Below are positions 1-37,243 of a stretch of 64,000 nucleotides of DNA, one piece after another (within the stretch, counting starts at the first letter, position 1; each line of letters starts with the position of its first letter). This stretch comes from an uncultured Polycyclovorans sp. (GTDB taxonomy: Bacteria > Pseudomonadota > Gammaproteobacteria > Nevskiales > Nevskiaceae): positions 7,314 to 71,313 of the forward strand of contig CAYROO010000010.1 in the NCBI GenBank assembly GCA_964425915.1. The letters run 5' to 3'. The notes under the pieces are model-generated. The model saw only the letters and a list, made by a program, of their open reading frames with translations. It was not told where the DNA came from and made no database searches. Made by a program: the position numbers and the translations under genes.

Positions 1-13
1 CCGCGGCGCCCAG

Positions 14-3000
14 GTGCAGCTCGATACCCTCGCCGAGGGCCGTCGTCAGCGCCAGCAACAGGCGCAGCCGGCCGACATCGCCATCGTCGGCATTGGCACC
101 TTGCTACCCAAGGCGGATGGTCCCGACGCGTTCTGGCACAACATCCTGCACCAGGTTCGCAGCATCGGCCCGGTACCGCCGGAACGCTGGGATCCCGAGC
201 TGTATTTTGATGCCGACCGCAAGACCCGCGACAAGGTCTACTCGCGTTGGGGCGGCTTCCTCGACGAAGTCCCGTTCGACCCGATGCGCTACGGCATCCC
301 GCCACGCTCGATGAAGTCGATCGACCCGATGCAGCTGCTGACCCTGGAAGTGGCACAGCGCACCCTGGCCGATGCCGGCTATGGCGAAGGCGGCTTCGAC
401 CGCGAGAACACCTCCATCATCCTCGGCGCCGGCGGCGGCCTTGGCGACCTCGGCCTGCAATACGGCGTGCGTGCCGAACTGCCCCGCTTTGTCGAGAACC
501 CCGATCCGCGCGTGTGGGAACGGCTGCCGGAATGGACCGAGGAGTCCTTCGCCGGCACCCTGCTCAACGTGGCGGCCGGCCGCGTTGCCAACCGCATGGA
601 CTTCGGCGGTCTCAATTTTACGGTGGACGCCGCCTGCGCCTCGTCGCTGGCCGCCATTTCCATCGGCGTCAGCGAGCTGGAATCGGGCCGCAGCAATTTC
701 GTGCTGGCCGGTGGCATCGACACCGTACAGTCGCCGTTCGGCTTCCTCTGTTTCTCCAAGACCCAGGCGCTGTCGCCCACCGGCAACCCGCGCACCTTCG
801 ACCGCCAGGCCGACGGCATCGCCATCAGCGAAGGCCTCGCCGTGGTGGGCCTGAAGCGCCTGGCCGATGCCGAGCGCGACGGTGACCGTATCTACGCCGT
901 CATCAAGGCGGTCGCAGGCTCCAGCGACGGCAAGGCGCTGGGCCTCACCGCCCCGCGCCCTGATGGCCAGATCCGCGCGCTCAATCGCGCGTACGCCAAG
1001 GCCGGCTTCTCGCCCAGCACCCTGAGCCTGTTCGAGGCCCATGGCACCGGCACGCCAGTGGGCGACAAGGCCGAAGCGGAAACCATCACCCGTGCCCTGC
1101 GCGCGGAGAACGCGGCCCCGCAGACGGTCGCCGTCGGCTCGGTGAAGACCCTGGTCGGCCACACCAAGGCCAGTGCTGGCGTGGCCGGCCTGATCAAGAT
1201 GGCATTGTCGCTCTACCACCGGGTGCAGCCGGCACACTTCGGCGTCGACACGCCGATCGAACCTCTGGCTGCGGCAGATGCCCCGGCCTATCTGCTGAAG
1301 CAGCCGCGCCCGTGGCTGGCGCACCCCGATCACCCGCGGCGTGCGGGGGTCTCGGCCTTTGGCTTTGGCGGCACCAACTTCCATGCCGTGCTGGAGGAAT
1401 ACCAGGGCGCGCAAGCTGCCGCCGCCGGAGACGACCAATGGCCGCAGGAACTGCTGGTGTTCCGCGCCCGCGATGTCGCCCAGTTGCAGCAACAGATCGA
1501 GCAGCTGGTCCCGGTGACTCAGTCCCCAGGCCGCCTCAAACTCGGCACCCTGGCGCAATCGCTGGCTGCTGCCGCGGGCCGTCACGCCGACGCAGCGGTG
1601 ACCCTGGCCCTGGTGGCCCAGGACTTCGACGCGCTGCATCGCGACCTTGGCGCGGTGCTCAACCACCTGCGCGAAGGCAAGCCGCTGCCCCCGAGTGCAC
1701 GACTCAACCGCGAAACCCCGCGGGAAGCACCGGCCGTGGCTTTCCTGTTCCCTGGACAGGGCGCCCAGCACCTCAATATGGGGCGTGAGACTGCGCTCTA
1801 TTTCGATGAGATTCGCGGCGCGCTGGAACTGGCCGACCGTACCCTGGCGACGCAGCTGCCACGTCGCCTGTCCGACTACATCCTGCCACCGTCGGCCTTC
1901 GATGCGGCCACCGAGCAAGCCCAGCAACAGGCGCTCACCGATACCCGTGTGGCGCAACCCGCCATCGGCGCGGTGGCCCTGGGTTATCTGGGGCTGGCCC
2001 GCCGCCTCGGCCTGCAAGCACAGGCCACTGCCGGCCACAGCTACGGCGAATATGTCGCGCTGTCAGCGGCGGGCGTGATCTCCGCCGAAGACTGCCTGCG
2101 GCTGTCGGCCGTCCGCGGTGCCGCGATGGCCGCTGCCAGCGCCGCCTCGGTGCCGGGCACCATGGCGGCGGTTCAGGGCGAGCGATCGGCCATCGAAGCC
2201 CAACTCGGTGCCTTCGAGGGCGTTCGGGTCGCCAATCACAACAGCCCGGGTCAAAGCGTAATTTCGGGTCCGCGCGCCGCGGTGGAAGCGGCCGTGGAAG
2301 CCCTCGGCAAGGCTGGACTGCGCAGCACCCTGCTGCCGGTCTCCGGCGCATTCCACACCGAGCTGGTGGCCAGCGCGCGGCCGCCGCTCTCCGCCGCGAT
2401 CCAGGCGACCCCCTTCCACCCCGCTGCAGTACCGGTTTACAGCAATCGTAGCGGCGCCCCCTACCCGGAAGGCCCGGAGGCCATGAAGGCCCAGCTCGAC
2501 GAGCACCTGCTGTCGAGCGTGGAGTTCGTCCAGGAAATCACGGCGATGGCCGATCAGGGCTGTCGTCTGTTTGTCGAACTGGGGCCGAAAAGCATCTGCG
2601 CCAACATGGCGCGTGCCATCCTCGAAGGGCGCGCCGACATCGCCACCGTATCCCTCGACGGCCAGGGCGGCGGCATGCGCGGCCTGCTGCTCGGGCTCGC
2701 CGAACTCTGGACCCGCGGCGCGGCCCTGCAGCCGCAACGCCTGTTCGACGGCCGCAACCTGCCGATGCTGGAGATCACCGCGCTGGCGCAGGCGGCGGCT
2801 GAGCCAACACTGCCCGCGCACGTGTGGATGGTCAGCGGCGGCTGCGCCCGCCCGCAGCAGGATCGCGAACGTCGTACCGGCAGCCTGCCCGCGCTGACCC
2901 GCGCCACGGCTGAAGCCGCACGCGCGGCCGCTGCAACCCCACCGCCCGCTGCCGCCGTCGCATCCCCAGGGGCGCCGGCACCGGCGGCCCCGATACCCGC

Positions 3001-6000
3001 GGCCATGCCGGCTGGCTTCGGCAGCGACGCTTTGCTGGCATACCAGCAAACCATGCAGCAATTCCTGGCGCTGCAGGAGCGGGTGTTGCAGCAAGCCCTG
3101 GGCGCCCTGCCATCCGGTACACCGACCACGGCACCGATGCTGGCGCCCTCGGTGGCGGTTATCCCGCCGTCGATCACGCCCACCGTCCAGGTGGCGCCCC
3201 CGACGCCGGTGGCCGCCGCGGCTGCACCGACGGCCGCCACCACCGCGCCGCCAGCAGCCGCTGCGACGGCCCCGGTGCCCGCGCCGGCCGCCGTGGATCG
3301 CCGTGCGGTGTTGCTGGCCATCGTCGCCGAGCGCACCGGGTATCCCGAGGACATGCTGGGACTCGATGCCGACCTTGAGGCCGATCTCGGGGTCGACTCC
3401 ATCAAGCGTGTCGAGATCATGGGCGCCTTGCAGAAGGCTCTGCCGGGCAGCAGTGGCAGCGCGCTGCAGGCCCACATGGAGCAGTTCACCCAGGCTCGCA
3501 GCCTGTCCGCCATTCTGGCCGCGCTCGATGCGGTGGCCCCGGACCTCACCGAGGCCGCCACGCCGGCGCCGATGAAGCCCGCCACGGCGCTCGCCCCGAC
3601 AGTGGATATGCGTGCCCTGCTGCTCGGCATCGTCGCCGAGCGCACCGGTTACCCGGAGGACATGCTCGGCCTCGACGCCGATCTTGAAGCCGACCTCGGC
3701 GTCGATTCGATCAAGCGCGTCGAGATCATTGGCGCTCTGCAGAAGGCACTGCCCGCCGAAACCGGCGCCAGCCTGCAGGGTCAGATGGAGACCCTCACCC
3801 AGGCGCGCACCCTAAACGCCGTGCTGACCACCCTAGCGGCCATCGCGCCAACCGCGACAGCAGCCTCTGAGGCGGTCACGCCGGTGGCGCCTGTTGCGGT
3901 TGCGGCCGCGCTGGACCCCGGCCCACTGTTGCTGGGCCTCGTCGCCGAGCGCACCGGTTACCCGGAGGACATGCTCGGCCTCGACGCCGATCTTGAAGCT
4001 GATCTCGGTATCGATTCGATCAAGCGCGTGGAAATCATCGGCGCCTTGCAGAAAGCACTGCCGGCAGAGGCCGGTCAGGCCCTGCAAGCCGAGATGGAAC
4101 GCTTCACCCAGGCGCGCACGCTCAACGCCGTGCTTGCAGCGCTGGGTGCCGTGATGCCCACCGCCGCGACGCCCGCCGCCACAGCGGCAGCCGTGACGGC
4201 AACCGCTTCCGCTCCCACGACACCCGACTATCCAGCACTGTTGCTGCGGATCGTGGCGGAACGCACCGGGTATCCAGAGGACATGTTGGGCCTGGATGCC
4301 GACCTCGAAGCCGATCTCGGTGTCGACTCGATCAAGCGCGTGGAGATCATCGGCGCCTTGCAGCAGGCACTGCCACCGGCGATCGGACAGGCGCTGCAGG
4401 CCGGCATGGAGCAGCTCACCCAGGCCCGCAGCCTCAATGCCGTGCTGCAGGCACTGGCGGTGTTGGCGCCACAGGCCGTCCCCGCGGCAACGGCCAACCC
4501 CTCGGCATCCGCGGCATCCGCGGCATCCGCCCCCCTCAGCCCCGAGGTGCCGCGCGCGGACGCGACCATCCCGCGCTACGTGGTCCGTCCGATCCCGGCA
4601 CCGCTCCCCCCGCATCGCACTAAGCTGAGTGGCGCGACCCTGGTGCTGGGCGGCCCGGAAACCATCACCGAGGCCCTCGTAGCGCGCCTTCGCGCCGAGG
4701 GCTTGAACCCCACCGCCCTGAAGCAGCTGGACGCGGACGCACTGCGCAAGGCGCTGGACGCGGCTACGGCTGCCGGCACGCCGGTGAAGGCGGTCCTGCA
4801 TTTGTCGGGCCTGACACCGGCGCAAGATCCCGATGGCGTGGGCGCCCACCTGCTGCCCCTGTTGCACCTGGCGCAGCTGATGGGCAAGCACTTTGACGGC
4901 ATCCGTCTGATTGCGGCATCACGCCTCGGCGGCAGCTTCGGACGCGACAGCGAGGGCGACGGTGACCTGCTGGCGGGTGGTCTCAACGGCATGCTCAACT
5001 GCCTCCGCTTCGAATACCCGGAAGCGCGTCTGCGCGCCGTCGATTTCGACGGGCAGACCGATACCGAGATTGTCGCCGCCCTGTGCGATGAGCTGCTCTG
5101 CGACGACCCTGCCCCGGAAGTGGGGTACATCGGTAACGACCGCACCGGCAGTCGGGTGCTGGCGCAATCCGTGGGCTCGGGTGCCGGACTCGAGCCGGCA
5201 GCCGACTGGGTGGTGCTGGCCACCGGCGGTGCCCGTGGCATCACCGCAGAGCTGCTGGAGGCGATGGCAGTCCCCGGAATGCGTTTGGTGCTGGTGGGTC
5301 GCACCGCCGAGCCCACCGCCGAAGCCGAGGCGATCCGGACCTTGCGTGATGCAGCGTCCCTGCGCGGGCACTTTGTCAGCGAGGCCCGCAAGGCCGGCGA
5401 AACGCCGCGCCCCGCCGAGATCGACCGACGTATCCAGGCGGTGCTGGCCGCACGCGAGATTCGCGACAACCTCGAACGCTTGCGCCACACCGGCGCTCAG
5501 GTCGACTACCGAGCCTGTGATGTCCGGGATGCCCATGCCTTTGCCGGGCTGCTCGACCAGCTTTACCAGCAGCACGGTCGTATCGACGCGGTGATTCACG
5601 GCGCTGGCGTGATCGAGGACAAGTTGGTGGTCGACAAGACCGAGGACTCGTTCCGTCGTGTCATCGGCACCAAGCTCGACGGCGCGCGCGTACTGGCCGA
5701 TCACCTGCGGCCGGACAGCCTCAAGCTGCTGTGTTTCTTCACCTCGGTTGCGGGCCGCTTCGGCAATCGCGGGCAATCGGACTATGCCGCCGCCAACGAG
5801 ACCCTCAATCGCCTGGCCTGGGCGCTGCATCGCCGCTGGCCCGACACCCGCGTAATGGCGATCAACTGGGGCCCCTGGGACGCGGGCATGGCCAGTGAGG
5901 CGGTGCGCGAAGGCTTCCGCACGCAGGGTATCGAGCCGATTCCGGTTCCCGCCGGCCGGCGTTTCTGGATGGATGAGATTCGCCACGGCGCGCGCAGCGA

Positions 6001-6961
6001 TGTTGAGCTGGTGGCCGGTCGCGGTCGCTGGGGCGATGATGACGCTCAGCCGGTCAATCCGCCTGCGGCGGCCGCCAACGATCTGGTGTTGATCGCCCAC
6101 GCCCCGCGGATGGGCCCTGGCGGCGCCATGACCCTGGACCACGTGTTCAGTGCCGGTCGCGATCCCTATCTGCTGGATCACCGCATCGATGGCAAGCTGG
6201 TGTTGCCAGCCGCGGGCGCCGCCGAATGGATGGCGCAGTTTGCAGCCGCTGCTTGGCCCGGTTGGCAGGTCAGTGAGATCCGCGATCTGCGGCAGTTCAA
6301 CGGCATCACCCTGGACCGCGATGGCGAGCGCCTGATCCAGCTTCGGGCACGGGCCTCATCCCACTCCGATGCCGGCACGCAGTCGATCACGGTGGAGATG
6401 GTGGACCCCGCGCAGAAGCGACCCTGCTACCGCGCCACCATCTGTCTGGTGGAACAGTTGCCTGCGGCGCCGGTACTTGACCTCGCCGCACTGGCGGAAG
6501 CGCAGGCGGTCAGCGCCAGCGATGCCTACCATCGTTATCTATTCCACGGGCCGCGCTTCCAGCTGATCGACCGCATCGATGGGGTCGCCCGTGCCGGTAT
6601 CGACGCCAAGGTCCGCGGCGCCGACGTCAATGCCTGGGTGGAACGACCGGGGCAGTGGCTATTCGATCCAGGTTTGCTCGATCTGGCGCCGCAGCTGGCC
6701 ATCGTCTGGTCACGCGTCCAGCACGACATGACCGCCCTGCCCTCGGCCTTCGGTCGGGTGCAGCGCTTTGCCGGTGCCCATCGCGATCAGCCCCTTCGGC
6801 TGGCCCTGCGCATGCTGCCCGAGGAGCAGGCCAACGCCATCCGCTACGACGCCTGGTTCGTCGACGCGCAGGGGCGCGTGGCCTTGGCGATGGAGCGCTG
6901 CGAGGGCCACATGAGCGCCGCACTCAACCGCCTCGCCGGCGAGGCCAGCCAGCGTGGCTGA
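14..6961 (+). CDS. PfaA-like iterative type I PKS / PUFA-synthase-like subunit (KS-AT-4xACP-KR-DH)
   Basis: Domain motifs in order: KS (VDAACASS with Cys208, EAHGTGT, GHTKASAG); AT (GHSYGE, Ser676); Ala/Pro-rich linker; four tandem ACPs with LGxDSIKRVEI (Ser codons at 3398, 3707, 4016, 4328); KR Rossmann motif (GGARGIT); PKS-type DH (LLDHRIDGKLVLP). GTG 14 is the first in-frame start, but there is no stop between nt 2 and 14, so the 5' end may lie upstream of the window. Confidence 0.9.
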   Translation: MQLDTLAEGRRQRQQQAQPADIAIVGIGTLLPKADGPDAFWHNILHQVRSIGPVPPERWDPELYFDADRKTRDKVYSRWGGFLDEVPFDPMRYGIPPRSMKSIDPMQLLTLEVAQRTLADAGYGEGGFDRENTSIILGAGGGLGDLGLQYGVRAELPRFVENPDPRVWERLPEWTEESFAGTLLNVAAGRVANRMDFGGLNFTVDAACASSLAAISIGVSELESGRSNFVLAGGIDTVQSPFGFLCFSKTQALSPTGNPRTFDRQADGIAISEGLAVVGLKRLADAERDGDRIYAVIKAVAGSSDGKALGLTAPRPDGQIRALNRAYAKAGFSPSTLSLFEAHGTGTPVGDKAEAETITRALRAENAAPQTVAVGSVKTLVGHTKASAGVAGLIKMALSLYHRVQPAHFGVDTPIEPLAAADAPAYLLKQPRPWLAHPDHPRRAGVSAFGFGGTNFHAVLEEYQGAQAAAAGDDQWPQELLVFRARDVAQLQQQIEQLVPVTQSPGRLKLGTLAQSLAAAAGRHADAAVTLALVAQDFDALHRDLGAVLNHLREGKPLPPSARLNRETPREAPAVAFLFPGQGAQHLNMGRETALYFDEIRGALELADRTLATQLPRRLSDYILPPSAFDAATEQAQQQALTDTRVAQPAIGAVALGYLGLARRLGLQAQATAGHSYGEYVALSAAGVISAEDCLRLSAVRGAAMAAASAASVPGTMAAVQGERSAIEAQLGAFEGVRVANHNSPGQSVISGPRAAVEAAVEALGKAGLRSTLLPVSGAFHTELVASARPPLSAAIQATPFHPAAVPVYSNRSGAPYPEGPEAMKAQLDEHLLSSVEFVQEITAMADQGCRLFVELGPKSICANMARAILEGRADIATVSLDGQGGGMRGLLLGLAELWTRGAALQPQRLFDGRNLPMLEITALAQAAAEPTLPAHVWMVSGGCARPQQDRERRTGSLPALTRATAEAARAAAATPPPAAAVASPGAPAPAAPIPAAMPAGFGSDALLAYQQTMQQFLALQERVLQQALGALPSGTPTTAPMLAPSVAVIPPSITPTVQVAPPTPVAAAAAPTAATTAPPAAAATAPVPAPAAVDRRAVLLAIVAERTGYPEDMLGLDADLEADLGVDSIKRVEIMGALQKALPGSSGSALQAHMEQFTQARSLSAILAALDAVAPDLTEAATPAPMKPATALAPTVDMRALLLGIVAERTGYPEDMLGLDADLEADLGVDSIKRVEIIGALQKALPAETGASLQGQMETLTQARTLNAVLTTLAAIAPTATAASEAVTPVAPVAVAAALDPGPLLLGLVAERTGYPEDMLGLDADLEADLGIDSIKRVEIIGALQKALPAEAGQALQAEMERFTQARTLNAVLAALGAVMPTAATPAATAAAVTATASAPTTPDYPALLLRIVAERTGYPEDMLGLDADLEADLGVDSIKRVEIIGALQQALPPAIGQALQAGMEQLTQARSLNAVLQALAVLAPQAVPAATANPSASAASAASAPLSPEVPRADATIPRYVVRPIPAPLPPHRTKLSGATLVLGGPETITEALVARLRAEGLNPTALKQLDADALRKALDAATAAGTPVKAVLHLSGLTPAQDPDGVGAHLLPLLHLAQLMGKHFDGIRLIAASRLGGSFGRDSEGDGDLLAGGLNGMLNCLRFEYPEARLRAVDFDGQTDTEIVAALCDELLCDDPAPEVGYIGNDRTGSRVLAQSVGSGAGLEPAADWVVLATGGARGITAELLEAMAVPGMRLVLVGRTAEPTAEAEAIRTLRDAASLRGHFVSEARKAGETPRPAEIDRRIQAVLAAREIRDNLERLRHTGAQVDYRACDVRDAHAFAGLLDQLYQQHGRIDAVIHGAGVIEDKLVVDKTEDSFRRVIGTKLDGARVLADHLRPDSLKLLCFFTSVAGRFGNRGQSDYAAANETLNRLAWALHRRWPDTRVMAINWGPWDAGMASEAVREGFRTQGIEPIPVPAGRRFWMDEIRHGARSDVELVAGRGRWGDDDAQPVNPPAAAANDLVLIAHAPRMGPGGAMTLDHVFSAGRDPYLLDHRIDGKLVLPAAGAAEWMAQFAAAAWPGWQVSEIRDLRQFNGITLDRDGERLIQLRARASSHSDAGTQSITVEMVDPAQKRPCYRATICLVEQLPAAPVLDLAALAEAQAVSASDAYHRYLFHGPRFQLIDRIDGVARAGIDAKVRGADVNAWVERPGQWLFDPGLLDLAPQLAIVWSRVQHDMTALPSAFGRVQRFAGAHRDQPLRLALRMLPEEQANAIRYDAWFVDAQGRVALAMERCEGHMSAALNRLAGEASQRG
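3290..4470 (+). repeat. Four tandem ACP-domain coding repeats (period 309/309/312 nt)
   Basis: The phosphopantetheine Ser codons are spaced 309, 309 and 312 nt apart. Repeats 2 and 3 share an identical 60-nt run (cgtcgccgagcgcaccggttacccggaggacatgctcggcctcgacgccgatcttgaagc, starting at 3631 and 3941). Confidence 0.9.
4503..4529 (+). repeat. Perfect 3 x 9-bp in-frame microsatellite (cggcatccg) in the ACP-KR linker
   Basis: Read directly at 4503-4511, 4512-4520 and 4521-4529. It encodes the SAASAASA stretch of the linker. Confidence 0.85.
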
Positions 6962-9900: not shown

Positions 9901-11783
9901 CCTCGGATCCGCGTCAGCTCGCCTTGCAGACCCATTTTGCGCTGATGCGCGATTTTCTCGATTCCCAGGCCCGGGTGATGGGGCTGGTGGCGGCGCCGGC
10001 CGGATCCGCCGTGACGGCTCCCGGACCCGCGGCGACTACGATGACGTCCCAAGGCGTGCGCTTCCCCCTGTTACACGGCGCCGAGAAAAAGGTCGACGGC
10101 ACGCGTGTGGTGTTCGAGAAGCGCCTCTGTCTGGAGCAGGACGCGTTCCTGCAGGATCACACCATCGGCGGCGCCCCCAGTGCCCACGACCCGACGCTGT
10201 TACCGATTCCGGTGGTGCCGTTCACCTTCAGCATGGAGCTGTTGGCGGAGGCTGCCCAATCCATGCTGGGGCGCAGTGACCTGCGCGTGGTGGGGCTCGA
10301 CCAGGTCCGCGGCAGCCGCTGGCTGTCCTTGGATCAGGGGGAATTGCGGCTGCGCGTGGTGATGGAACCGCGCCCCGGCAGCGATGACGCACCGCAGCTG
10401 TTCGGGCGGATCTTCGCGCTTGGCATCGGAGGCCCCCCGGGCGGCCTGGCGGTCTTCGAGGGCCTGGTACGCCTCGGCCGCGCCTATGCAACGCCGCCTG
10501 CAGCACGCCCGTGGAGTTCGCCCGATGAACACCCGCCGCGCAACAATCCGGATGGCGAGCTGTACGCCCACGGCATGTTCCATGGGCCGCGACTGCAGGG
10601 CGTCCGCCATATCCGCCGCTGGGGCGAAAACGCCATCGAGGCGGATCTGGAGGCGATCCCCACCCACGACTACTTCAGCCGCTTCAGCACCCCGTCGTTC
10701 GAGCTGGACGCGGCCATGCTCGATGCCGCCGGACAGCTTGCCGGTTACTGGCTCACCGAGAAACATACCTGGGGCTTCAACTGCTTCCCGTTCCGCCTGG
10801 CTCGCTTTGACCTTTTCGCACCGCCGCCGGCGCCGGGCACCCGGGTGCTGTGCCGGATGACGCTGCGCATGACTGGAGAGCAGTTGCTGGAAGCCTCGAT
10901 GGACATGATCGGACCGGACGGCACACTGGTCATGCGCGCCGATCATTGGGAGGACCGCAAGTTTTCGGTGCCGCAGCGGCTGTATGACTATCGTCTACAG
11001 CCACAGACCCGCACGATGTCCGAGCCCTGGCTGCGGTCGCAGACCGGCCAGGATCATCACTACGCCCGCCTGATGGAACCTTTTGCCGCCGATTTCCTGG
11101 ATGAGGGCGGCGGGATCTGGCGGCGCATGCTGGCCCACATGGTGCTGGGTCATCGCGAGCGAGCGGCCTTCTACAGCCTGCCCGCCAACAGTAGCCGGCG
11201 CGAAGAGTGGCTGATGGGCCGCATCGCCGCCAAGGAGGCACTGCGCGAGTGGATGAAGGCCACGCACGGCCATGAACTCGCCTCGGCCGACTTCGAGCTG
11301 ATCGCCGATGAGCGCGGTCAGCCCCGTGCCAGCTGCGCGCCGTTGCCCGAGCTGGCCATGCCAACCGTATCGATCAGCCACAGCCGTCGCTGGGCGGCGG
11401 CCAGCCTGTCGCCTCCTGGCGAACCCTGTGGACTCGACTATCAGCGGCTCGATCATGTCGACCCGGATCTGCTTGCAGCCGGCGCCCTCACCGACCTCGA
11501 GCGCGCACTGCTGCAACCCTGGCGCTCGCTGCCCAGCTATGCCCAGGTCACGGTGGCGCTGTGGGCCAGCAAGGAGGCCGCAGCCAAGTCGCATGGTGAG
11601 GGTCTGGGTGGCCGACCGGTGGACTGGCGCGTGGTGTCGCTATCGGGTGAGCCCTTGCCGGCCCACGCTGCGGTAGAGCACCGCGGGTGGCGCTATCTGA
11701 TCAGTCTTCTCTACCCCGGCCCCGGCGAGGTGGTCGCGTTCTGCTGCGAGCGCCACAACATCGCCCTGCCGCAGCCTGCCTGA
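6954..11783 (+). CDS. Type I PKS subunit KS-AT-DH fused to a C-terminal Sfp-type 4'-phosphopantetheinyl transferase domain
   Basis: KS motifs (IVDAACASS with Cys208, EAHATGIPLGD, KSQISHA); AT (FLFPGEGAQ, GHSTGE with Ser676); PKS-type DH (FLQDHTIGG...P). The C-terminal ~230 aa carry PPTase signatures (ISHSRRWAAA, GLDYQ, WASKEAAAK). The GTG start overlaps the upstream stop by 8 nt. Confidence 0.88.
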   Translation: MAEPLDIAIIGMSGVYAGSRDVPAYWQNILDRRYCVSEAPEAWSRGVLDRDGRAPNRVYTAQGGWLHDLAEFDPREFGVMPNTVDGREPDHFLALKQSRDALRDSGYLDKPFNHERAGVILGRGNNTNRGAANLIAHGNEIDQMVDLVAKVRPDLSETELDALREGLRAQLPPFNPEMLPGLIPNVTTGVIANRLDLMGPNCIVDAACASSLVALEQACRELQLGRCDLMLSGGVHAQTPPHSYMIFSQINALSRERIRPFDAAGTGTLLGEGCGVVVLKRLADAERDGDRIYAVIKGIGVASDGRAKGLFAPRSEGQVVAMRRAYEASGIDPATVSLIEAHATGIPLGDRTEIQSLKEIFGERQGALPHIALGSVKSQISHAIPASGAASLIKIALALQQKVLPPMLIDAPAPHLELEQTPFYLNSEARPWVHDPRQPRRAGANAFGFGGINAHVLLEEYRPGNRPVQVPVLHAPSDGELVMLAAADRTALLVRVAQLQHRLEQTPRPPLSSVAQHCANMAEGAHRLAIVASDIDDLQKKLGQAHDKLAKDDARPFKTRNGIHYGAGPAPGKLCFLFPGEGAQYPGMLRDLCVQFPAARAWFDFLEETVVPGERDSRAPIVFAPPTTLDASTRAALEQRLFDMDIASETVFAASMALFDVLTGLGLKADAMLGHSTGENTALTASRVRRFTDRREIADTVRDLNRIYRELDARGEIVEGSLLTIGALKPDRRQALLSQAGGDIVVAMDNCPNQLVIFGSREAVASVREREAAEGAICAELPFGRAYHTALFKPIADAYREYFAGIEFGEGIATLYSARSAAPFSHDAAGIRELVAQQWESRVRFTETIERLYQDGYRVFVEVGPSSNLTGFVSDILRSADDVVVVGTDSRRKAGLAALRSALAQIFAAGVNFPPAALFAHRDIPPMADSAPLKPMPRLNLMMPRLSWPESLPVPPLPMTPAAADGPLQAAPVAAPAASVASPSDPRQLALQTHFALMRDFLDSQARVMGLVAAPAGSAVTAPGPAATTMTSQGVRFPLLHGAEKKVDGTRVVFEKRLCLEQDAFLQDHTIGGAPSAHDPTLLPIPVVPFTFSMELLAEAAQSMLGRSDLRVVGLDQVRGSRWLSLDQGELRLRVVMEPRPGSDDAPQLFGRIFALGIGGPPGGLAVFEGLVRLGRAYATPPAARPWSSPDEHPPRNNPDGELYAHGMFHGPRLQGVRHIRRWGENAIEADLEAIPTHDYFSRFSTPSFELDAAMLDAAGQLAGYWLTEKHTWGFNCFPFRLARFDLFAPPPAPGTRVLCRMTLRMTGEQLLEASMDMIGPDGTLVMRADHWEDRKFSVPQRLYDYRLQPQTRTMSEPWLRSQTGQDHHYARLMEPFAADFLDEGGGIWRRMLAHMVLGHRERAAFYSLPANSSRREEWLMGRIAAKEALREWMKATHGHELASADFELIADERGQPRASCAPLPELAMPTVSISHSRRWAAASLSPPGEPCGLDYQRLDHVDPDLLAAGALTDLERALLQPWRSLPSYAQVTVALWASKEAAAKSHGEGLGGRPVDWRVVSLSGEPLPAHAAVEHRGWRYLISLLYPGPGEVVAFCCERHNIALPQPA

Positions 11784-11834
11784 ACCCCATCACACGCTTC
11801 TCAAATCCCATTACCAAGACGTCCGGATTTTCCC

Positions 11835-13433
11835 ATGACCTCCACGCTGTTCATCGGCCTCGACGGCTGCACGTTCACTGTTCTCAACGAGATGGTGAAG
11901 GACCTCCCCGGCGAAGGCATCACCATGCCGTTCATGAAGAAGGTGCTCGAAGGCGGCGTCCGCGCCCGTCTGCGCTCCACGCCCAACCCGCTGACTCCGC
12001 CCGCATGGTGTTCCATCATGACCGGCAAGAACCCCGGGGCTCACGGCGTGTTCGACTTCATCCGCGCCGAGGACAAGGGCGGTGAGGTGTTCTGGACGCT
12101 CTATGACGCCCGCGATGTCGACAGTGAGATGATCTGGTCGATTGCCAGCCGCAAGAAGAAGTCGGTGGCCGCGCTCAACTTCCCGCTCACCGCACCACCG
12201 CCCGAGGTCAACGGCTGCATCGTGCCCGGGTTCATCCCGGCCAAGCACCTGCGCCGCAATACCCACCCGCGGGAACTGTTCGAACGGTTGAAGCAGAACG
12301 TCCCCGACTTCAACCCCAAGGAACTGGCCTGGGATTTCGACAACGAAAAGCAGGCCCTGGAAGTGCTGTCGCCCGAGGACACCGAAAAGTGGGTGCGCTA
12401 CCACCTGCCGCGTGAGGAGCAGTGGTTCAAGGTGGCGGAGTACGTGCTGGAAAATGACAAGCCGGACCTGATGGCCGTGATGTTCGACGGCACCGACAAG
12501 ATCCAGCACCAGGCCTGGCCCTCACTGGATCCCGCGCTGGTGCCGAAGAATCCGCAGGGACACGACCTCGCCATGCGGCAGGTCTGCCTCGAGTACTTCC
12601 GCAACCTGGATCGCTATATCGAGCGCCTGGTCTCCCTGGCCGGCCCGGAGGCCCAGGTGTTCTTCGCCTCCGACCATGGCTTCACCGCCAGCACCGACGT
12701 CCTGCGTATCAACGCCTATCTGGCCGAGCTCGGCTACCTCACCTGGGCCGAGAACGATGGCTCTGAGCAGGCCCTGCGTCGCGAGGCCAGCGACTTCGCC
12801 AACCTCGACTGGTCGAAGACCACCGCCTATTGCCGCACACCGTCCTCCAACGGCATTCACATCCGCGTGGCGGAAAAGCCCGGCGATCCGGGCATCTCGC
12901 CAGACGACTACGAGCGCTTCCGCGACAAGCTGATTGCCGACCTCAAGGCGCTGCGTCACCCGATCACCGGCAAGGCCTTCGTGGCCGACGTGCTGAAGCG
13001 TGAGGAGTGGTTCCCGGGCGCGCACATGAAGGAGGCCTGCGACCTCACCCTGGTGCTGCACGACCACGGCTTCGTGTCGATCCGCAATCTCAGCCCCTCA
13101 GTGGTGCAGCGGCCGACGCCGGCAGGCACCCACCATCCGGACGGCATCTTCCTGGCCTACGGCAAGGGCATCGCGCCGCGCGGCGAGGTCGATCTCCAGC
13201 AAATCGTCGATGTCTGCCCGACCCTGCTGCACAGCATGGGACTGTCGGTCCCCTCAGACCTGGAAGGCCAGGTGGCGCTGAACTTCTTCGACGAGGGCTG
13301 GCTCCAGGAGCACCCGGTCAAGCAGGGCGCCAAGACACGCGCCGTCGCCTCGCGCGCGCCCAGCGAGGAAATGGATGCGCAGGAGCGTCAACAAATGATC
13401 GAGCAGCTGCAGATGCTCGGTTACATGGAGTGA
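11835..13433 (+). CDS. Alkaline-phosphatase superfamily protein (type I phosphodiesterase / nucleotide pyrophosphatase-like)
   Basis: The N-terminal LFIGLDGCTF and the STPNPLTPPAWCSIMTG region resemble the NPP/AP-family metal and nucleophile motifs. ASDHGF appears later in the protein. The gene lies 51 nt after the PKS gene on the same strand. Confidence 0.7.
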   Translation: MTSTLFIGLDGCTFTVLNEMVKDLPGEGITMPFMKKVLEGGVRARLRSTPNPLTPPAWCSIMTGKNPGAHGVFDFIRAEDKGGEVFWTLYDARDVDSEMIWSIASRKKKSVAALNFPLTAPPPEVNGCIVPGFIPAKHLRRNTHPRELFERLKQNVPDFNPKELAWDFDNEKQALEVLSPEDTEKWVRYHLPREEQWFKVAEYVLENDKPDLMAVMFDGTDKIQHQAWPSLDPALVPKNPQGHDLAMRQVCLEYFRNLDRYIERLVSLAGPEAQVFFASDHGFTASTDVLRINAYLAELGYLTWAENDGSEQALRREASDFANLDWSKTTAYCRTPSSNGIHIRVAEKPGDPGISPDDYERFRDKLIADLKALRHPITGKAFVADVLKREEWFPGAHMKEACDLTLVLHDHGFVSIRNLSPSVVQRPTPAGTHHPDGIFLAYGKGIAPRGEVDLQQIVDVCPTLLHSMGLSVPSDLEGQVALNFFDEGWLQEHPVKQGAKTRAVASRAPSEEMDAQERQQMIEQLQMLGYME

Positions 13434-13438
13434 GGCCG

Positions 13439-13723
13439 ATGGCACCCGACACCATCATCGCCAGGCTCATCGCCCTGCTTGAAGACTTCACCCAGGACTG
13501 GGACCAGGAGCCCGACGCCGGCATGTCGGCGGATACGCTGCTGCTGGCCGATCTCGGCTTCGAGTCGGTCGACATCATCCAGCTCACCGTCGCCATCGAA
13601 GAAGAGTTCAAACTGTTCCGCACGCCGTTCGACAAGCTGCTGATGAAGGACGGCCGCTACGTCGATGACCTCAGCATCGGCCAGATCGCGACCTTCCTGC
13701 AGCCCTACGTGCAGGCCGCCTGA
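13439..13723 (+). CDS. Discrete acyl carrier protein
   Basis: 94 aa starting at an internal ATG of ORF 13007..13723. It has an ACP-like helix II motif (LADLGFESVDIIQL), is acidic, and lies 5 nt after the preceding stop. Confidence 0.7.
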   Translation: MAPDTIIARLIALLEDFTQDWDQEPDAGMSADTLLLADLGFESVDIIQLTVAIEEEFKLFRTPFDKLLMKDGRYVDDLSIGQIATFLQPYVQAA

Positions 13724-13732
13724 GGCCGGCGC

Positions 13733-14593
13733 ATGGCTTTTGCCTCGGTCGACAATGCCCAGCTCGCCTGGCAGCAGCTGGGCGAAGGTCCCGACCTGGT
13801 GCTGGTTCACGGGCTGGCGACCAATCGTGCGTTCTGGTTTGGCCATGCCATGCGGCTGTCGCAGCGGTTCCGCGTCACCCTGTTCGATCTGCGGGGTCAT
13901 GGCTACAGCAGCACGCCAGAACACGGCTACGAGATTCGACGACTGGGCGCCGACATCCTTGGCCTGATGGATCAACTGTCGATCCCACAGGCGGCGCTGA
14001 TCGGCCATAGCTACGGCGGTGCGGCCGCCATTGAAGCGGCGGTGCAGGCACCGGAGCGGGTCACCGCAATGGCGGTGCTGGATGCCCGCAGCCTGCTTTT
14101 TCAGCCGCAGATGTGGCTGCATGAGGCGCCCGACCTCAGCCCCTTCGAGGCGGAGATCGCACAGGGCACGGAAGTCGACTGGCCGCGCGAGCCGCAGGTG
14201 GGACTGCGTTTCCTGGAGATTGCCGCGCGGCGCTGTCTGGCCGGGCAGGCGCCTGGCGCGCGCGATCCCGTCACCCCCTTTGGCGAAGGTCGCGGTGCCC
14301 GCAAGGCGGCGCGGCAGTGGCTGAACCTGATCGAGCAGACCACCGCCTGGGACGACTTTCATCGCCCGGGCGCCGACATCCCGGCGTTACGCTCGCTTTC
14401 GCAACCGACCCTGCTGATGTACGCCGATGGCAGCCGCTGCCTGAAATCGGGAGAGGGCCTGCGGAACCTGTGGCCGGCGGCGCGTTTCCAATTGCTGGAA
14501 GGCGCGGCGCACTTTTTCCCCCTGACCCACGCGGAACAAGTGGTTCACCAGCTGTTCGACTTTCTTGCCCCCCTGACCCTGACGGAGGCCTGA
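13733..14593 (+). CDS. Alpha/beta-fold hydrolase
   Basis: LVLVHGL oxyanion region and GHSYGG nucleophile elbow. Typical size of 286 aa. Confidence 0.8.
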   Translation: MAFASVDNAQLAWQQLGEGPDLVLVHGLATNRAFWFGHAMRLSQRFRVTLFDLRGHGYSSTPEHGYEIRRLGADILGLMDQLSIPQAALIGHSYGGAAAIEAAVQAPERVTAMAVLDARSLLFQPQMWLHEAPDLSPFEAEIAQGTEVDWPREPQVGLRFLEIAARRCLAGQAPGARDPVTPFGEGRGARKAARQWLNLIEQTTAWDDFHRPGADIPALRSLSQPTLLMYADGSRCLKSGEGLRNLWPAARFQLLEGAAHFFPLTHAEQVVHQLFDFLAPLTLTEA

Positions 14594-14596
14594 CCG

Positions 14597-15475
14597 ATGA
14601 AGTCCTTGATCCCCCTGTTGCTCACCCTGACGACCCTGGCCTGTCACGCCCCGACCAGCGTCCGTGCCGACGACGGCAGTACCCAGACCTATACGTTCAA
14701 GGCCGGCGGCCACGAGCGCAGCTACGAGGTCTATCGCCCCGCCAGCGCGAAGGGCAGCGACAAGCGTCCGCTGGTGGTGGCGCTGCACGGCGGCTTCGGC
14801 ACCGGCGAGATCATGGCGGAACAGAGCCGCTTCAACGCGGTCGCGGATCGCGCCGGCTTCATCGTGGCGTATCCGGACGGCATCGCCCGGGCCTGGAACG
14901 CCGGACGCTGCTGCGCCAAGCCGATGAAGGAGAAAGTCGACGACGTCGCCTTCATCAAGGCGGTGATCGACCGCATCGCAGCCGACTACCCGATTGATCG
15001 CAGCCGGGTGTTCGGCACCGGTTTCTCCAACGGGGCCATGATGGTGCACCGGATCGCCTGTGAGGCGCCGTCGGTGTTTGCCGCCATCGCGCCGGTGTCG
15101 GGTGGCGTCATGCTGGACCGTTGCGACAGCGGACGCGGCGTCCCCACCCTGATGATCCAGGGCAAGCTGGACAAGCGCATTCCCTGGGACGGCGGCACGG
15201 TGGAAGACAGCTACCGCCCTTCGATGGCGGCCTTGGTGGACATGCTCGGCAAGCGCAACGGCTGCGGGGCGCAAGCCAAGCAGCTGCAGAAGCGCGGCCA
15301 GCTCGCCTGCTACCGGCAGGAGGGCTGCAAAGCCGCCCTGGAATGGTGCGGGCTGGATGAAGTCGGGCATCAATGGCCCGGCGGCAAGACCTTGATGGCC
15401 CGCTTCCTGGGCCCCAATACCCAGGCCTTCGATGCCAGCCAGGGGATCTGGGCGTTCTTCGCCGCTCAGCGCTGA
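14597..15475 (+). CDS. Secreted PHB-depolymerase-family (LpqC-like) esterase
   Basis: Signal peptide (MKSLIPLLLTLTTLACHA). Also PLVVALHGG, DDVAFIKAVIDRI and GFSNGAMM (nucleophile elbow). Confidence 0.75.
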   Translation: MKSLIPLLLTLTTLACHAPTSVRADDGSTQTYTFKAGGHERSYEVYRPASAKGSDKRPLVVALHGGFGTGEIMAEQSRFNAVADRAGFIVAYPDGIARAWNAGRCCAKPMKEKVDDVAFIKAVIDRIAADYPIDRSRVFGTGFSNGAMMVHRIACEAPSVFAAIAPVSGGVMLDRCDSGRGVPTLMIQGKLDKRIPWDGGTVEDSYRPSMAALVDMLGKRNGCGAQAKQLQKRGQLACYRQEGCKAALEWCGLDEVGHQWPGGKTLMARFLGPNTQAFDASQGIWAFFAAQR

Positions 15476-15645
15476 ACATCGGGGTCAATTCTCCCGTTGA
15501 CCCTGCGGGGGCGGTCCGGTAGAACCGGCGCTTTACTGCGGCCTGCCGGCCGCGGAGGGCGGCCCGTCCGCCCCTGACATCAACAATCGGACCGACCGGG
15601 CCTGCCCACGCAGGCGCCTGCCGGCGTGGGGGAGCTTGACCGTAT

Positions 15646-16401
15646 ATGTCGCTAACGGCGTCTAGAGTGGCACTGATCACCGGTGCCGCCGGGGGTATCG
15701 GTCAGGTGACCGCCCAGCAGTTCGCGCAGGCGGGGTATCGTTTGGCCCTGCTCGACCAGCAGGCCGGTCCACTGGCGGTGACGGTGGACGGCCTGCGGGC
15801 CTCCGGCTTCGAGGTGCGCGGCTACGTCGCCGACCAACGTGATGCCGCGGGGCTGACGGCCGCCTTTTCGGCCATGCGGAACGACTTTGGCCGGCTCGAC
15901 GCCGCCTTCAACAATGCCGGCGTGCCATCCCGACACTTGCCCCTGCACGAGCTCACCGATGAGGAGTGGGGCAACTGTCTGGACGTCAATCTCAACGGCA
16001 CCTGGCGTTGCATGCGCGAGGAGATCCGCTGGATGCTCGACGTCGGTGGCGGCTGCATCGTCAATAATGCTTCAGTCTACGCACTCAATGGCGGTCCCAG
16101 TCCGGCCTACACCGCCAGCAAGCACGGCATTGCCGGCCTCACCAAGACAGCTGCATTGCAGTACGCCGCACGCAGTATTCGGGTCAATGCGGTGTGTCCG
16201 GCGTTGGTGACGGCTGGCATGGGCTTGAAGGCGATTCAGCATGCGGCGCTGAGCAAGACCGACCTGCTCGAAAAGCATCCCGCCGGTCGTGCTGCCAGTG
16301 CCGAGGAAGTGGCGCGCGCGGTACTCTGGCTATGCTCGCCCGACGCCGACTTCATCCACGGCCACATGCTGGCGCTGGACGGCGGTTACGGGGCTCGCTG
16401 A
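15646..16401 (+). CDS. Short-chain dehydrogenase/reductase (SDR)
   Basis: TGAAGGIG cofactor motif, NNAG, and YTASK catalytic motif (YxxxK). 251 aa. Confidence 0.88.
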   Translation: MSLTASRVALITGAAGGIGQVTAQQFAQAGYRLALLDQQAGPLAVTVDGLRASGFEVRGYVADQRDAAGLTAAFSAMRNDFGRLDAAFNNAGVPSRHLPLHELTDEEWGNCLDVNLNGTWRCMREEIRWMLDVGGGCIVNNASVYALNGGPSPAYTASKHGIAGLTKTAALQYAARSIRVNAVCPALVTAGMGLKAIQHAALSKTDLLEKHPAGRAASAEEVARAVLWLCSPDADFIHGHMLALDGGYGAR

Positions 16402-17897: not shown

Positions 17898-17959
17898 GAT
17901 CCCCCTCCGGTGATGACGATATAGGTCCATCATCGCGTGTGTCTCCCGTGACATTCCGG

Positions 17960-18898
17960 CTACCGCACGGTGCCCGCTTCGACCGTGTCTTCGCGGTCTT
18001 CGTAACCGTAACTCCGGGCCAAGGCGCGGACCTCGGGATCAAACGCGGCGCCGTCATCACGCCAGGGCACCGGCCCCGCAAGCGAATAGGGCGGTGCCGG
18101 TAGGGTGATGCCGTCCAGCACGGGATCCAGCACCTCCATCTCCAGACCACGCGGCGCCTCGGGCGGCCCGAACCCCGCAAATGGGCTGTCGGCTGCCGCC
18201 ATCATCCGGTCGCACACCGCGGTCTCGACGGGCGCCAGGCCAAGCCCGGCGATCAGCGCCGACAGGGCCTGGTCCGGCTGCGACTGCAGGGATTCCATGC
18301 GCAGCATCCTGCGCTGTGCGGCGGGCCACCAGCGCTGCAGATTTCGCTGGCAGCGAAGCCAGGGCAACTGTGGTTCGATCGCGGCCGGCTGCGGTGAGCG
18401 TGCGTGGTCACGATAGTCGGCCGGGACAAACACTTGCGATGCCAGCCAGCGCGACCACACCACACCGTGTGGCAGCGGGTGCCGCAGGCAGTGAACGAGG
18501 TCCGCCTGCGGCGCCAACGCCTGCCAGCGCAACAGTTCATGGGGCCGCAGGGCGCTTTCACTGTCCGGGATCACCAATCGGCGGGGCGCCACGGCGGCCG
18601 CCAGTGCAGCCAACACATCGGCGGTACGCTGATTCGAGCGCTGCTGCAGCCAGTCCCGAGCGGCCGCGATGCCGCGCGCATTCTGGCCGCCGGTCAGGTG
18701 CTCAGCGATGGCGCGCAGCAACCCGTCGGCGATGGGGGCCTGACTGATCGCAAAGATTTCGAGCAAGGCATCCACCCGCTCTGCGAGGCCCAGCCTAAGC
18801 TCTGGCATCGGCGCCAGCTGCGGATGCGACCCCAGCATCTGTGCCAGCAGCGACGTGCCCGAGAACGGCGCGCCGAACACCAGGATGGGTGCGCTCAT
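17960..18898 (-). CDS. Sulfotransferase-family protein
   Basis: N-terminal PAPS 5'-phosphosulfate-binding-like loop (ILVFGAPFSGTSLLAQML). A CLRHP...S region resembles the 3'-phosphate motif. The start overlaps the upstream stop (ATGA). Confidence 0.6.
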   Translation of the reverse strand: MSAPILVFGAPFSGTSLLAQMLGSHPQLAPMPELRLGLAERVDALLEIFAISQAPIADGLLRAIAEHLTGGQNARGIAAARDWLQQRSNQRTADVLAALAAAVAPRRLVIPDSESALRPHELLRWQALAPQADLVHCLRHPLPHGVVWSRWLASQVFVPADYRDHARSPQPAAIEPQLPWLRCQRNLQRWWPAAQRRMLRMESLQSQPDQALSALIAGLGLAPVETAVCDRMMAAADSPFAGFGPPEAPRGLEMEVLDPVLDGITLPAPPYSLAGPVPWRDDGAAFDPEVRALARSYGYEDREDTVEAGTVR

Positions 18899-36518: not shown

Positions 36519-36554
36519 GTTGGGCTCCGAAAAATTCGTAAAACGTCTGTCTGG

Positions 36555-36583
36555 AAGGTGGGCGCGCCGGCGCCCGATTCAAG
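36555..36583 (-). promoter_or_regulatory. Putative sigma32 (RpoH) heat-shock promoter upstream of dnaK
   Basis: The minus strand reads CTTGAAT-N14-CCCACCTT, close to the CTTGAAA-N13-15-CCCCATnT consensus. Confidence 0.5.
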
Positions 36584-36587
36584 GGGC

Positions 36588-37142: not shown

Positions 37143-37214
37143 GGTTGGGCCTGGGTGTTCGATAGGGATGGAACGCGCGGACCACCGACGGCTGAACCGC
37201 CGGCACCTGCGAGG

Positions 37215-37243
37215 ACGTGGGGGCAGCCGCCCGCCTTTTCAAG
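37215..37243 (-). promoter_or_regulatory. Putative sigma32 (RpoH) heat-shock promoter upstream of grpE
   Basis: The minus strand reads CTTGAAA-N13-CCCCCACGT in the hrcA-grpE spacer. Confidence 0.55.

Follow-up and report, generated by a model that had tools for sequence, protein, structure and literature searches.

An ArsA/ArsD-like iterative synthase encoded in a conserved, probable secondary-lipid operon of an uncultured Polycyclovorans

The DNA analysed here, referred to as the window, is a 64,000-nt stretch of a contig from an uncultured member of the genus Polycyclovorans (Nevskiales). At its 5′ edge lies the operon under study (nt 1-16401), which encodes a two-subunit, PfaA-like iterative lipid synthase followed by a set of candidate tailoring enzymes. 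This operon forms the larger part of a gene cluster whose further members extend to approximately nt 24129. Domains were assigned by searching the proteins encoded by the open reading frames (ORFs) of the window against Pfam and NCBIfam profiles, and the positions of the features are collected in Table 1.

The first gene, ORF1, is truncated by the edge of the window. The part that is present encodes a ketosynthase (KS), an acyltransferase (AT), four acyl carrier proteins (ACPs), a ketoreductase (KR) and a dehydratase (DH) of the polyketide synthase (PKS) type, with Pfam E-values for these domains between 2e-59 and 3e-14. Inspection of the sequence reveals a DLG(V/I)DSIKRVEI motif in each of the four ACPs, and a 309-nt tandem repeat array spanning nt 3309-4447 corresponds to this ACP region. 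Against the PfaA family model TIGR02813, the portion of ORF1 inside the window reaches 1331.8 bits and passes the curated cutoff of 1010.1. ORF2, whose start overlaps the stop of ORF1 by 8 nt, carries a KS, an AT, a DH and a phosphopantetheinyl transferase (PPTase), and scores 589.6 bits on the same model, which is under the cutoff. A preliminary description of this DNA had assigned the same domain orders to the two proteins, had noted the LGxDSIKRVEI signature in the ORF1 ACPs, and had recognized a PfaA-like two-subunit iterative synthase operon, all of which agrees with the profile matches.

The same description had concluded that the synthase has no enoyl reductase (ER), and this claim fails when related loci are considered. 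ORF1 is listed from nt 14, but its frame remains open 5′ of this position, with nt 2-13 free of stop codons and encoding the residues RGAQ. A genome scan with the KS region of ORF1 (KS1) as the query yielded 63 related loci, which are designated here by an L and a number where they need to be told apart. The nearest, L008, comes from a metagenome-assembled genome of another uncultured Polycyclovorans and shows 97% amino acid identity. Its DNA aligns to nt 1-120 of the window, and its reading frame continues through RGAQ in mid-protein (...CRGAQVQLD...). The L008 orthologue of ORF1 (7988-16921) is 2,977 aa in length and is longer by approximately 670 residues at its N terminus. These additional residues match the Pfam family PF03060 (NMO) and the NCBIfam model TIGR03151 (FabK), and also match crystal structures of the flavin mononucleotide-dependent enoyl-ACP reductase FabK (9pl0, 5gvh, 2z6i and 7l00). 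The ER region of L008 (7988-10000) is a tandem NMO in which the first half is degenerate (GHEAGGW) and the second half is intact and reads ECGGHVGP, which we take to correspond to the GGH motif of FabK/PfaD-type reductases. This arrangement suggests a pseudo-ER/ER pair within one polypeptide.

A fused ER of this type is a nearly constant feature of the family. In a tblastn search that used the L008 ER as the query and covered 60 relatives, an ER homologue is located directly 5′ of KS1 in 59 loci, with identities of 54-85% outside L008, the locus that supplied the query. The sole exception is a protein from Planctomycetota with 48% identity. In L071, L077 and L078, the gene calls likewise place the NMO first among the domains of the synthase, and no other NMO domain is present within the window. 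We infer from these orthologues that a FabK/PfaD-type ER is fused to the N terminus of ORF1 in this genome as well, just outside the window. Because ORF1 is truncated and its orthologues carry the fused ER, the apparent lack of an ER is an artefact of the position at which the window starts.

This finding bears directly on the type of product that can be expected. Since KR and DH are the only reductive domains visible within the window, the preliminary description had proposed an ER-less synthase that makes a conjugated polyene or a hydroxy/enoyl lipid, in the manner of the enediyne PKSs (PKSEs). Enzymes with such an output do exist, as RerA (KS-AT-ACP2-KR-DH) and RerB (PPTase-Y-TE, where TE denotes a thioesterase) of Rhodococcus erythropolis lack an ER and produce C17-C22 polyenes (PMC11563203). 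However, the premise that only KR and DH are available is wrong given the fused ER of L008 and of nearly all other relatives. Furthermore, KS1 is closest to ER-bearing ArsA-like synthases, and no enediyne PKS is found among the best Protein Data Bank (PDB) matches of either KS. With ER, KR and DH all present, the argument for a polyene or enoyl lipid loses its basis, and the ER-less model, which we now consider highly improbable, is largely refuted. A false lead is thereby removed, in that no new polyene chemistry is to be inferred from this window.

Other features of the two subunits address a possible relationship to the synthases of polyunsaturated fatty acids (PUFAs). Both KS domains retain the cysteine of a DAACASS motif and two histidines, and they share 39-40% identity. 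The possibility that ORF2 represents a subunit with a KS and a chain-length factor (CLF) was examined and rejected, because its active-site cysteine is present and the triad is complete. Judging from these residues, the second KS is an old paralogue and not a CLF, and both KS domains are catalytically intact. A FabA-type DH is absent, as both DH domains match only the PS-DH/PKS_DH_N profiles, and no PfaC-type KS-CLF/FabA-DH subunit was found in either the large ORFs elsewhere in the window or the upstream genes of relatives. The possibility that an ER, FabA, sulfatase-like or hexapeptide gene is hidden in another part of the window was also considered and rejected. The earlier statement that CLF and FabA-type dehydratase are missing is therefore borne out. 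Of the two upstream components that had been considered decisive against the preliminary description, relatives reveal a pfaD-type ER in the same operon and lack the KS-CLF/FabA-DH subunit.

The PPTase domain of ORF2 reads VSISH, which is the hShxH (P1b′) form of this motif and not the PUFA form. According to Shulse & Allen (PMC3098273), the hShxH P1b′ motif is typical of types M-T, and the PUFA type is characterized by P0 hRxhLS and P1b (F/S)NxSH. These PUFA-type motifs are not matched by the ORF2 PPTase. Although ORF1 exceeds the PfaA cutoff and carries PUFA-type tandem ACPs, as would a canonical PUFA synthase variant that makes acids of the eicosapentaenoic or docosahexaenoic type, several features argue against such a product. 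Neither the window nor the upstream DNA of relatives contains a FabA-type dehydratase/isomerase, a CLF or a PfaC-like gene, the PPTase has a non-PUFA motif, and the nearest characterized relative makes saturated acids. We judge this explanation to be highly improbable.

That nearest characterized relative, the closest CHARACTERISED system, is by sequence comparison ArsA/ArsD, the type I fatty acid synthase that belongs to the alkylresorcinol (ars) cluster. The comparison was made with the ars-type cluster on plasmid pBIND02 of Beijerinckia indica, which was matched in a protein search of a plasmid collection with the ORF2 C terminus as the query. In the typing scheme of Shulse & Allen 2011 (PMC3098273), pBIND02 and Azotobacter vinelandii constitute 'Type P', which is the ars alkylresorcinol cluster. 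The Beijerinckia ArsA-like protein has the order NMO-KS-AT-ACP2-KR and shares 40% identity with the L008 orthologue of ORF1 across 2,111 aa, with the degenerate first NMO half included in the alignment. On pBIND02, the gene for this protein is followed by a pair of genes for type III PKSs and then by a gene for a 629-aa PS-DH-PPTase protein. The C terminus of ORF2 aligns with this ArsD-like protein at 28% identity over 87% of its length (E 8e-38), and both contain PS-DH and ACPS domains. The reported products of ArsA/ArsD are C22-C26 acids, made from malonyl-CoA and kept on, or handed on from, the ACP (PMC3098273, PMC4824345). The first NMO half of the Beijerinckia protein carries the residues GHEAGGQ.

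A rough neighbour-joining tree of KS domains, built without Pfa, Hgl or PKSE references, groups KS1 with the KS domains of Fischerella, Ghiorsea and Blastocatellia, and the KS of Rhodobacteraceae SC52 joins next. The Streptomyces KS1 and the ArsA-like KS, which is 53% identical to KS1, fall just outside this group. The second KS (KS2) belongs to a separate clade common to Nevskiales, cyanobacteria and Streptomyces. PDB searches with each KS returned mostly generic PKS entries and the PfaC KS-CLF entry 6riw, and these matches do not discriminate between the clades. On the combined evidence from the fused ER and the ars comparison, we are confident that the locus encodes an ER-containing, ArsA-like synthase.

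Table 1. Features of the cluster in the window (positions in nt; ~, approximate domain boundaries)
Feature	Position	Strand	Basis
ORF1, 5′-truncated at window edge	1..6961, listed as 14-6961	+	KS-AT-4xACP-KR-DH within window
ORF1 KS	~74-1240	+	ketoacyl-synt N and C domains, Pfam
ORF1 AT	~1742-2650	+	Acyl_transf_1, Pfam
ORF1 four tandem ACPs	~3296-4453	+	four PP-binding stretches, Pfam
ORF1 KR	~5213-5902	+	Pfam
ORF1 PKS-type DH	~6125-6910	+	PS-DH/PKS_DH_N, Pfam
ORF2	6954..11783	+	KS-AT-DH-PPTase; Pfam
ORF2 KS, Cys-His-His triad intact	~6969-8177	+	Pfam and motif inspection
ORF2 AT	~8679-9689	+	Pfam
ORF2 PKS-type DH (PS-DH)	~10065-10952	+	Pfam
ORF2 Sfp-type PPTase (ACPS-type Pfam match)	~11184-11648	+	Pfam
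NPP/PhnA-like alkaline-phosphatase-superfamily enzyme (PF01663, Phosphodiest)	11835..13433	+	Pfam 2e-42
Free-standing ACP, 94 aa (LGFESVD)	13439..13723	+	weak PP-binding match and sequence
Alpha/beta hydrolase, GHSYGG nucleophile elbow	13733..14593	+	Pfam 9e-28
PHB-depolymerase-type (LpqC-like) esterase, predicted secreted	14597..15475	+	PF10503 Esterase_PHB; N-terminal signal-like sequence
Classical short-chain dehydrogenase/reductase (SDR), FabG-like (TGxxxGxG, YxxxK)	15646..16401	+	Pfam/NCBIfam and motifs
Predicted lipoprotein, 522 aa, weak PA-domain match	16386..17954	-	profile search
Sulfotransferase-family protein (PF13469, Sulfotransfer_3)	17960..18898	-	Pfam
Beta-propeller, 495 aa	18895..20382	-	AlphaFold2 model; no family
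M50-like (intramembrane HExxH) and HlyD/RND-type periplasmic adaptor fusion, 783 aa	20370..22721	-	profile searches
TolC-family outer-membrane channel	22741..24129	-	profile searches

Five co-directional genes are located downstream of ORF2, and their earlier assignment as an alkaline-phosphatase (AlkP)-family enzyme, an ACP, an alpha/beta hydrolase, an LpqC-type esterase and an SDR is confirmed by Pfam and NCBIfam matches together with sequence motifs. The first of these proteins, the NPP-like enzyme, is cytoplasmic on inspection of its sequence, with its metal ligands present and a threonine nucleophile in the motif LTPPAW. Its AlphaFold2 model (mean pLDDT confidence score of 83) gives best Foldseek matches to the phosphonoacetate hydrolase PhnA (1ei6), Xac NPP and ENPP1/6, although these are similarities at the level of the fold only, and a PDB sequence search returned no matches. 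Full-length cyanobacterial orthologues with 60-63% identity adjoin the same synthase. The free-standing ACP likewise has orthologues in the same position in Nevskiales, Fischerella and Anthocerotibacter, and a non-orthologous ACP is located there in Streptomyces. The alpha/beta hydrolase, a candidate for a chain-releasing thioesterase or acyltransferase, is conserved and comes behind the ACP in Nevskiales, in Anthocerotibacter (35% identity) and in Streptomyces, and its best PDB neighbours are generic esterases and lactonases.

The final two genes of the operon are variable members of the cluster. The esterase, which scores 173.9 bits on the model NF050058 (cutoff 150), is present in only some relatives, and the SDR, which is preceded by a 170-nt gap, occurs among relatives only in L004 and L006. 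In most Nevskiales loci, as judged from a comparison with L002, L004, L071, L072 and L074, a gene for a hexapeptide-repeat acyltransferase is positioned between the NPP-like gene and the ACP gene. This acyltransferase is absent here, where a 5-nt gap at 13433-13439 separates the two genes, and none is encoded in the rest of the window. A promoter and terminator scan gave nothing usable in the GC-rich DNA of the window.

The genes that precede the synthase can be viewed in L008. Immediately before it (7157-7969) is a gene for a 271-aa sulfatase-fold protein, which has a Pfam Sulfatase match and matches the NCBIfam model for STM4013/SEN3800-family hydrolases below its cutoff. The CxPxR formylglycine motif is absent from this protein. 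In 49 loci, this place is taken by a sulfatase-like gene, with 76-83% identity. Across Nevskiales genera, its identity is comparable to or above that of KS1 in most loci. Further upstream in L008 are a LysR regulator gene and then leuCD, leuB and asd, with no pfaC- or pfaD-like gene among these upstream genes.

Convergent with the SDR gene is a minus-strand operon whose genes overlap or lie 0-20 nt apart. The preliminary description had bounded the cluster at nt 16401, and the conserved gene set runs past this point on the minus strand to approximately nt 24129; the kinship with ars systems had likewise been missed. The first of these genes encodes a 522-aa predicted lipoprotein that has no homologue in any related locus and is probably outside the system. 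The next encodes a sulfotransferase (ST) homologue whose only solved relatives are the activating STs of olefin synthase (OLS; 4gox, 6e-7) and of CurM (4gbm, 4e-6). Orthologues of this gene adjoin the cluster in L004, L006, L071, L074 and the Fischerella locus L077. The window protein and its other Nevskiales orthologues read APFSGTS and VIPDSES, in which the arginine of the loop for 3′-phosphoadenosine 5′-phosphosulfate (PAPS) is replaced by phenylalanine (PFSGTS in place of PRSGST) and the lysine of the DKSP motif is lost. The Fischerella orthologue keeps SPRSxTS and VDKSP. The glutamate of a PEL motif is retained in the window protein, and Sinimarinibacterium has PQL, with glutamine at the presumed catalytic glutamate. 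Because the PAPS-loop arginine and the DKSP lysine, and in Sinimarinibacterium also the glutamate, are altered, sulfonation may have been weakened or lost in the Nevskiales lineage.

The resemblance to CurM and OLS raises the possibility of a terminal olefin as the product. In such a pathway, the ST would sulfonate a beta-hydroxyacyl-ACP and the hydrolase would then hydrolyse it, with decarboxylative elimination of sulfate, as occurs in curacin and cyanobacterial olefin synthase. The exclusive match to these two STs among solved structures, the conservation of a free ACP and an alpha/beta hydrolase in the cluster, and the CurM-like motifs of the cyanobacterial orthologue are consistent with this model. 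However, the substitutions in the Nevskiales proteins described above are unfavourable to it, as is the organization of ST and hydrolase as separate genes on opposite strands with no ST-TE didomain. In addition, the best PDB neighbours of the hydrolase are esterases and lactonases of a generic kind, with the CurM TE missing from the top 60, and no ST adjoins one of the Hydrocarboniphaga copies of the cluster. An olefin is therefore an improbable product.

The protein encoded beside the ST, 495 aa in length, matches no Pfam or NCBIfam model, and its homologues are all annotated as 'hypothetical'. An AlphaFold2 model (pLDDT 87) is confidently that of a beta-propeller, with fold matches that are generic and Kelch-like only. 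A resemblance to glucosinolate specifier proteins was dropped as too weak to use. This propeller co-occurs with the synthase in both Nevskiales and cyanobacteria. The Anthocerotibacter orthologue is 44% identical and is encoded directly after the hydrolase on the same strand, and an orthologue is also present in Fischerella. The M50-HlyD fusion has homologues in L002 and L004 and a weaker one (25%) in Fischerella. Its M50-like domain matches the model for a daptide intramembrane protease, and its HlyD part matches bacteriocin-type adaptors. Together with the adjoining TolC-family gene, which has a homologue in L002, this fusion constitutes an unusual exporter architecture beside a lipid cluster.

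To assess how consistently these genes travel together, synteny was examined in Sinimarinibacterium, Nevskia soli, Panacagrimonas, Hydrocarboniphaga, Solimonas and one further relative. All of these loci share the sulfatase-like gene, the ER-containing synthase subunit, the KS-AT-DH-PPTase subunit, the NPP-like enzyme, the ACP and the alpha/beta hydrolase. The hexapeptide acyltransferase is present in all but Nevskia soli, and an ST gene is near the cluster in all but one Hydrocarboniphaga copy. The propeller gene is beside the ST gene in four of these five loci and the adaptor gene is found in two, with the Solimonas locus ending inside the ST gene. Hydrocarboniphaga effusa AP103 has two synthase loci (L048 and L049) approximately 200 kb apart on one contig with identical match statistics, a pair that reflects either a recent duplication or an assembly artefact.

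Outside the Nevskiales, the core recurs with rearrangements. In Fischerella the order is [NMO-KS-AT-ACP][KR-DH][KS-AT-DH-PPTase][ACP][NPP-like], and downstream are genes for the weakly similar M50-HlyD-like protein, a hydrolase, an ST and a propeller. Anthocerotibacter (Gloeobacterales) has the arrangement [NMO-KS-AT-ACP][KR-DH][KS-AT][PPTase][ACP][NPP-like][alpha/beta hydrolase][propeller]. The synthase, ACP, NPP-like enzyme and propeller are therefore common to the two cyanobacteria, of which only Fischerella has the ST and the weak M50-HlyD homologue and only Anthocerotibacter has an alpha/beta-hydrolase orthologue. On a Streptomyces linear plasmid (L079), genes for ER-KS-AT-ACP-KR, KS-AT-DH-PPTase, an ACP and an alpha/beta hydrolase precede those for a glycosyltransferase and a methyltransferase. 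Because the same core recurs with differing tailoring sets, the synthase pair, ACP and hydrolase appear from sequence to be an old module to which different lineages have attached different head-group enzymes. A plasmid of Rhodobacteraceae SC52 (L076, 5295-19914) carries an uncharacterized variant of the family, in which the genes for ER-KS-AT-KR and AT-DH-PPTase subunits have between them those for a TauD-family dioxygenase, for a pair of hypothetical proteins and for a methyltransferase.

These arrangements also permit an evaluation of whether the minus-strand operon is a mere neighbour, that is, an unrelated export or peptide-processing system, a reading that is compatible with the proposed identity of the core synthase. 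The daptide-protease and bacteriocin-adaptor matches of the M50-HlyD protein point in this direction, as do the degenerate appearance of the ST and the existence of a Hydrocarboniphaga synthase copy that lacks this operon nearby. On the other hand, the ST and propeller genes adjoin the synthase in several genera of Nevskiales as well as in Fischerella, and the Anthocerotibacter propeller gene follows the hydrolase gene on the same strand. We consider an accidental association rather unlikely.

The remaining genes of the window are unrelated to the cluster and include dnaK, recN, clpX, tig, acrB, DUF3570 and ApbE genes, and a two-component system. Between nt 25586 and 32216 on the plus strand, two DUF3570 genes flank a gene for an ApbE flavin-transferase and are followed by genes for an OmpR-type response regulator and a histidine kinase, and this block appears unrelated to the lipid cluster. 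An ORF at nt 36333-37658 (plus strand) has PF10712 'NAD-GH' as its sole Pfam match, which coincides exactly with the part of the ORF that lies opposite the 5′ end of dnaK (34602-36518, minus strand) in antisense orientation, and this ORF is probably spurious.

The explanation that we favour, and consider somewhat better than an even proposition as a whole, is that the cluster is a conserved secondary-lipid operon built around an ArsA/ArsD-like, PfaA-family iterative synthase. With the ER supplied from orthologues, the subunits ER-KS-AT-ACP4-KR-DH and KS-AT-DH-PPTase are predicted to hold a complete reductive cycle and the means for self-priming. The PPTase domain would prime the four tandem ACPs and the free ACP, the AT domains would load malonyl units, and the two KS domains would elongate the chain iteratively with reduction by KR, DH and ER. 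Because of the ArsA/ArsD analogy and the full set of reductive domains, a long chain is expected that is for the most part saturated but may keep a hydroxyl or a double bond. Presumably, this chain would be transferred to the free ACP, set free by the alpha/beta hydrolase, or both. The NPP-like enzyme and the upstream STM4013-like hydrolase, both cytoplasmic AlkP-superfamily members, could add or process a head group of the phosphate- or sulfate-ester type, and the ST homologue perhaps shares in this chemistry. The convergent operon encoding the ST homologue, propeller, M50-HlyD fusion and TolC might then modify the lipid and export it to the envelope. By analogy, the most likely product would be a long, largely saturated acyl chain to which a head group is added before export, but the steps proposed to follow the synthase are tentative.

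Several observations weigh against this explanation. The ER is placed in this genome by way of its orthologues, as the window ends 13 nt before the listed start codon of ORF1. The sequence specifies neither chain length nor saturation, and two DH and two KS domains could leave unsaturations or hydroxyls. The chain-length data for ArsA/ArsD come from abstracts quoted in PMC3098273 and PMC4824345. For both AlkP-family enzymes, as for the propeller and the free ACP, the roles given here are guesswork, and fold searches returned generic matches only. Likewise, the Nevskiales STs are without the canonical PAPS-loop arginine and DKSP lysine, with one orthologue carrying glutamine for glutamate, the M50-HlyD part resembles peptide-export systems, and one Hydrocarboniphaga synthase copy stands without an adjoining minus-strand operon.

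A more far-reaching proposal is that the synthase, ACP, two AlkP enzymes, propeller, ST and M50-HlyD/TolC constitute one pathway shared by Nevskiales and cyanobacteria, which builds and exports an undescribed class of envelope lipid. Such a lipid would have a very-long-chain acyl or alkyl moiety with a phosphate- or sulfate-ester head group, and a chemistry unlike that of the known pfa, ars, hgl and ols systems. We regard this proposal as speculative and rather unlikely. What is left is a secondary-lipid cluster with an uncharacterized set of tailoring and export genes, which is well conserved across phyla and is found both in Nevskiales that degrade hydrocarbons and associate with algae and in cyanobacteria. 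The identity of the lipid would give a function to a catalogued but uncharacterized branch of PfaA/ArsA-like synthases, as well as to two AlkP-family enzymes and an unannotated beta-propeller family, and might bring to light a new lipid, either of the envelope or surface-active, with relevance to life where oil or air meets water.

No paper describing the product of this cluster was found in a literature search that spanned sulfotransferase, PfaA, Nevskiales, cyanobacteria and chlorosulfolipid clusters. The earlier remark that the tailoring set does not match any characterized pfa, hgl or ole cluster is supported. As in the ars cluster, the first subunit, judged from the L008 orthologue, begins with a tandem NMO/ER followed by KS-AT-ACP-KR, the second subunit ends in a PKS-type DH and a PPTase, and exporter genes are nearby. 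This cluster differs from ars by having four ACPs instead of two, an extra DH on the first subunit and an extra KS-AT on the second, as well as both AlkP-family enzymes, the free ACP, the alpha/beta hydrolase, the beta-propeller and the ST homologue. Type III PKS genes corresponding to ArsB/ArsC, which in ars systems are situated between the two FAS genes and give alkylresorcinols or alkylpyrones, were not found in nt 1-24129 or in the syntenic loci.

With PfaABCDE, the cluster shares a first subunit that passes the PfaA model, ACPs in tandem with the LGxDSIKRVEI motif, a PfaD-like ER of the NMO type and a PPTase of its own. However, the ER and PPTase are fused into the megasynthases here, and there is no PfaC KS-CLF, no FabA-type DH/isomerase and no PUFA-type PPTase motif. 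RerA/RerB and enediyne PKSE enzymes are similar in combining an iterative KS-AT-ACP(n)-KR-DH protein with an associated PPTase, but these are ER-less polyene makers, whereas the present synthase has an ER on its first subunit and a second KS-AT-DH. The likeness to CurM and OLS consists of the ST homologue, whose only solved relatives are from those systems, and the presence of an alpha/beta hydrolase and an ACP. In contrast to them, discrete genes encode the ST and the hydrolase here, one on each strand, without an ST-TE fusion, and the PAPS residues are degenerate in Nevskiales. None of the features of Hgl synthases, namely HglC KS-CLF-AT, an HglB-type reductase and a glycosyltransferase (an architecture outlined in PMC3098273), is present in the window.

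The same superfamily includes types M-O, which Shulse & Allen 2011 list for Frankia/Streptomyces and Gloeobacter/Dinoroseobacter as uncharacterized 'secondary lipid' synthases. The tailoring sets of such relatives differ from those of this cluster, with a glycosyltransferase and a methyltransferase in Streptomyces and a TauD dioxygenase and a methyltransferase in Rhodobacteraceae SC52. Anthocerotibacter, a member of the Gloeobacterales, combines the set found in the Streptomyces plasmid with the NPP-like enzyme and the propeller. The cluster is best placed among the PfaA/ArsA-like secondary-lipid synthases of the type M-P group.

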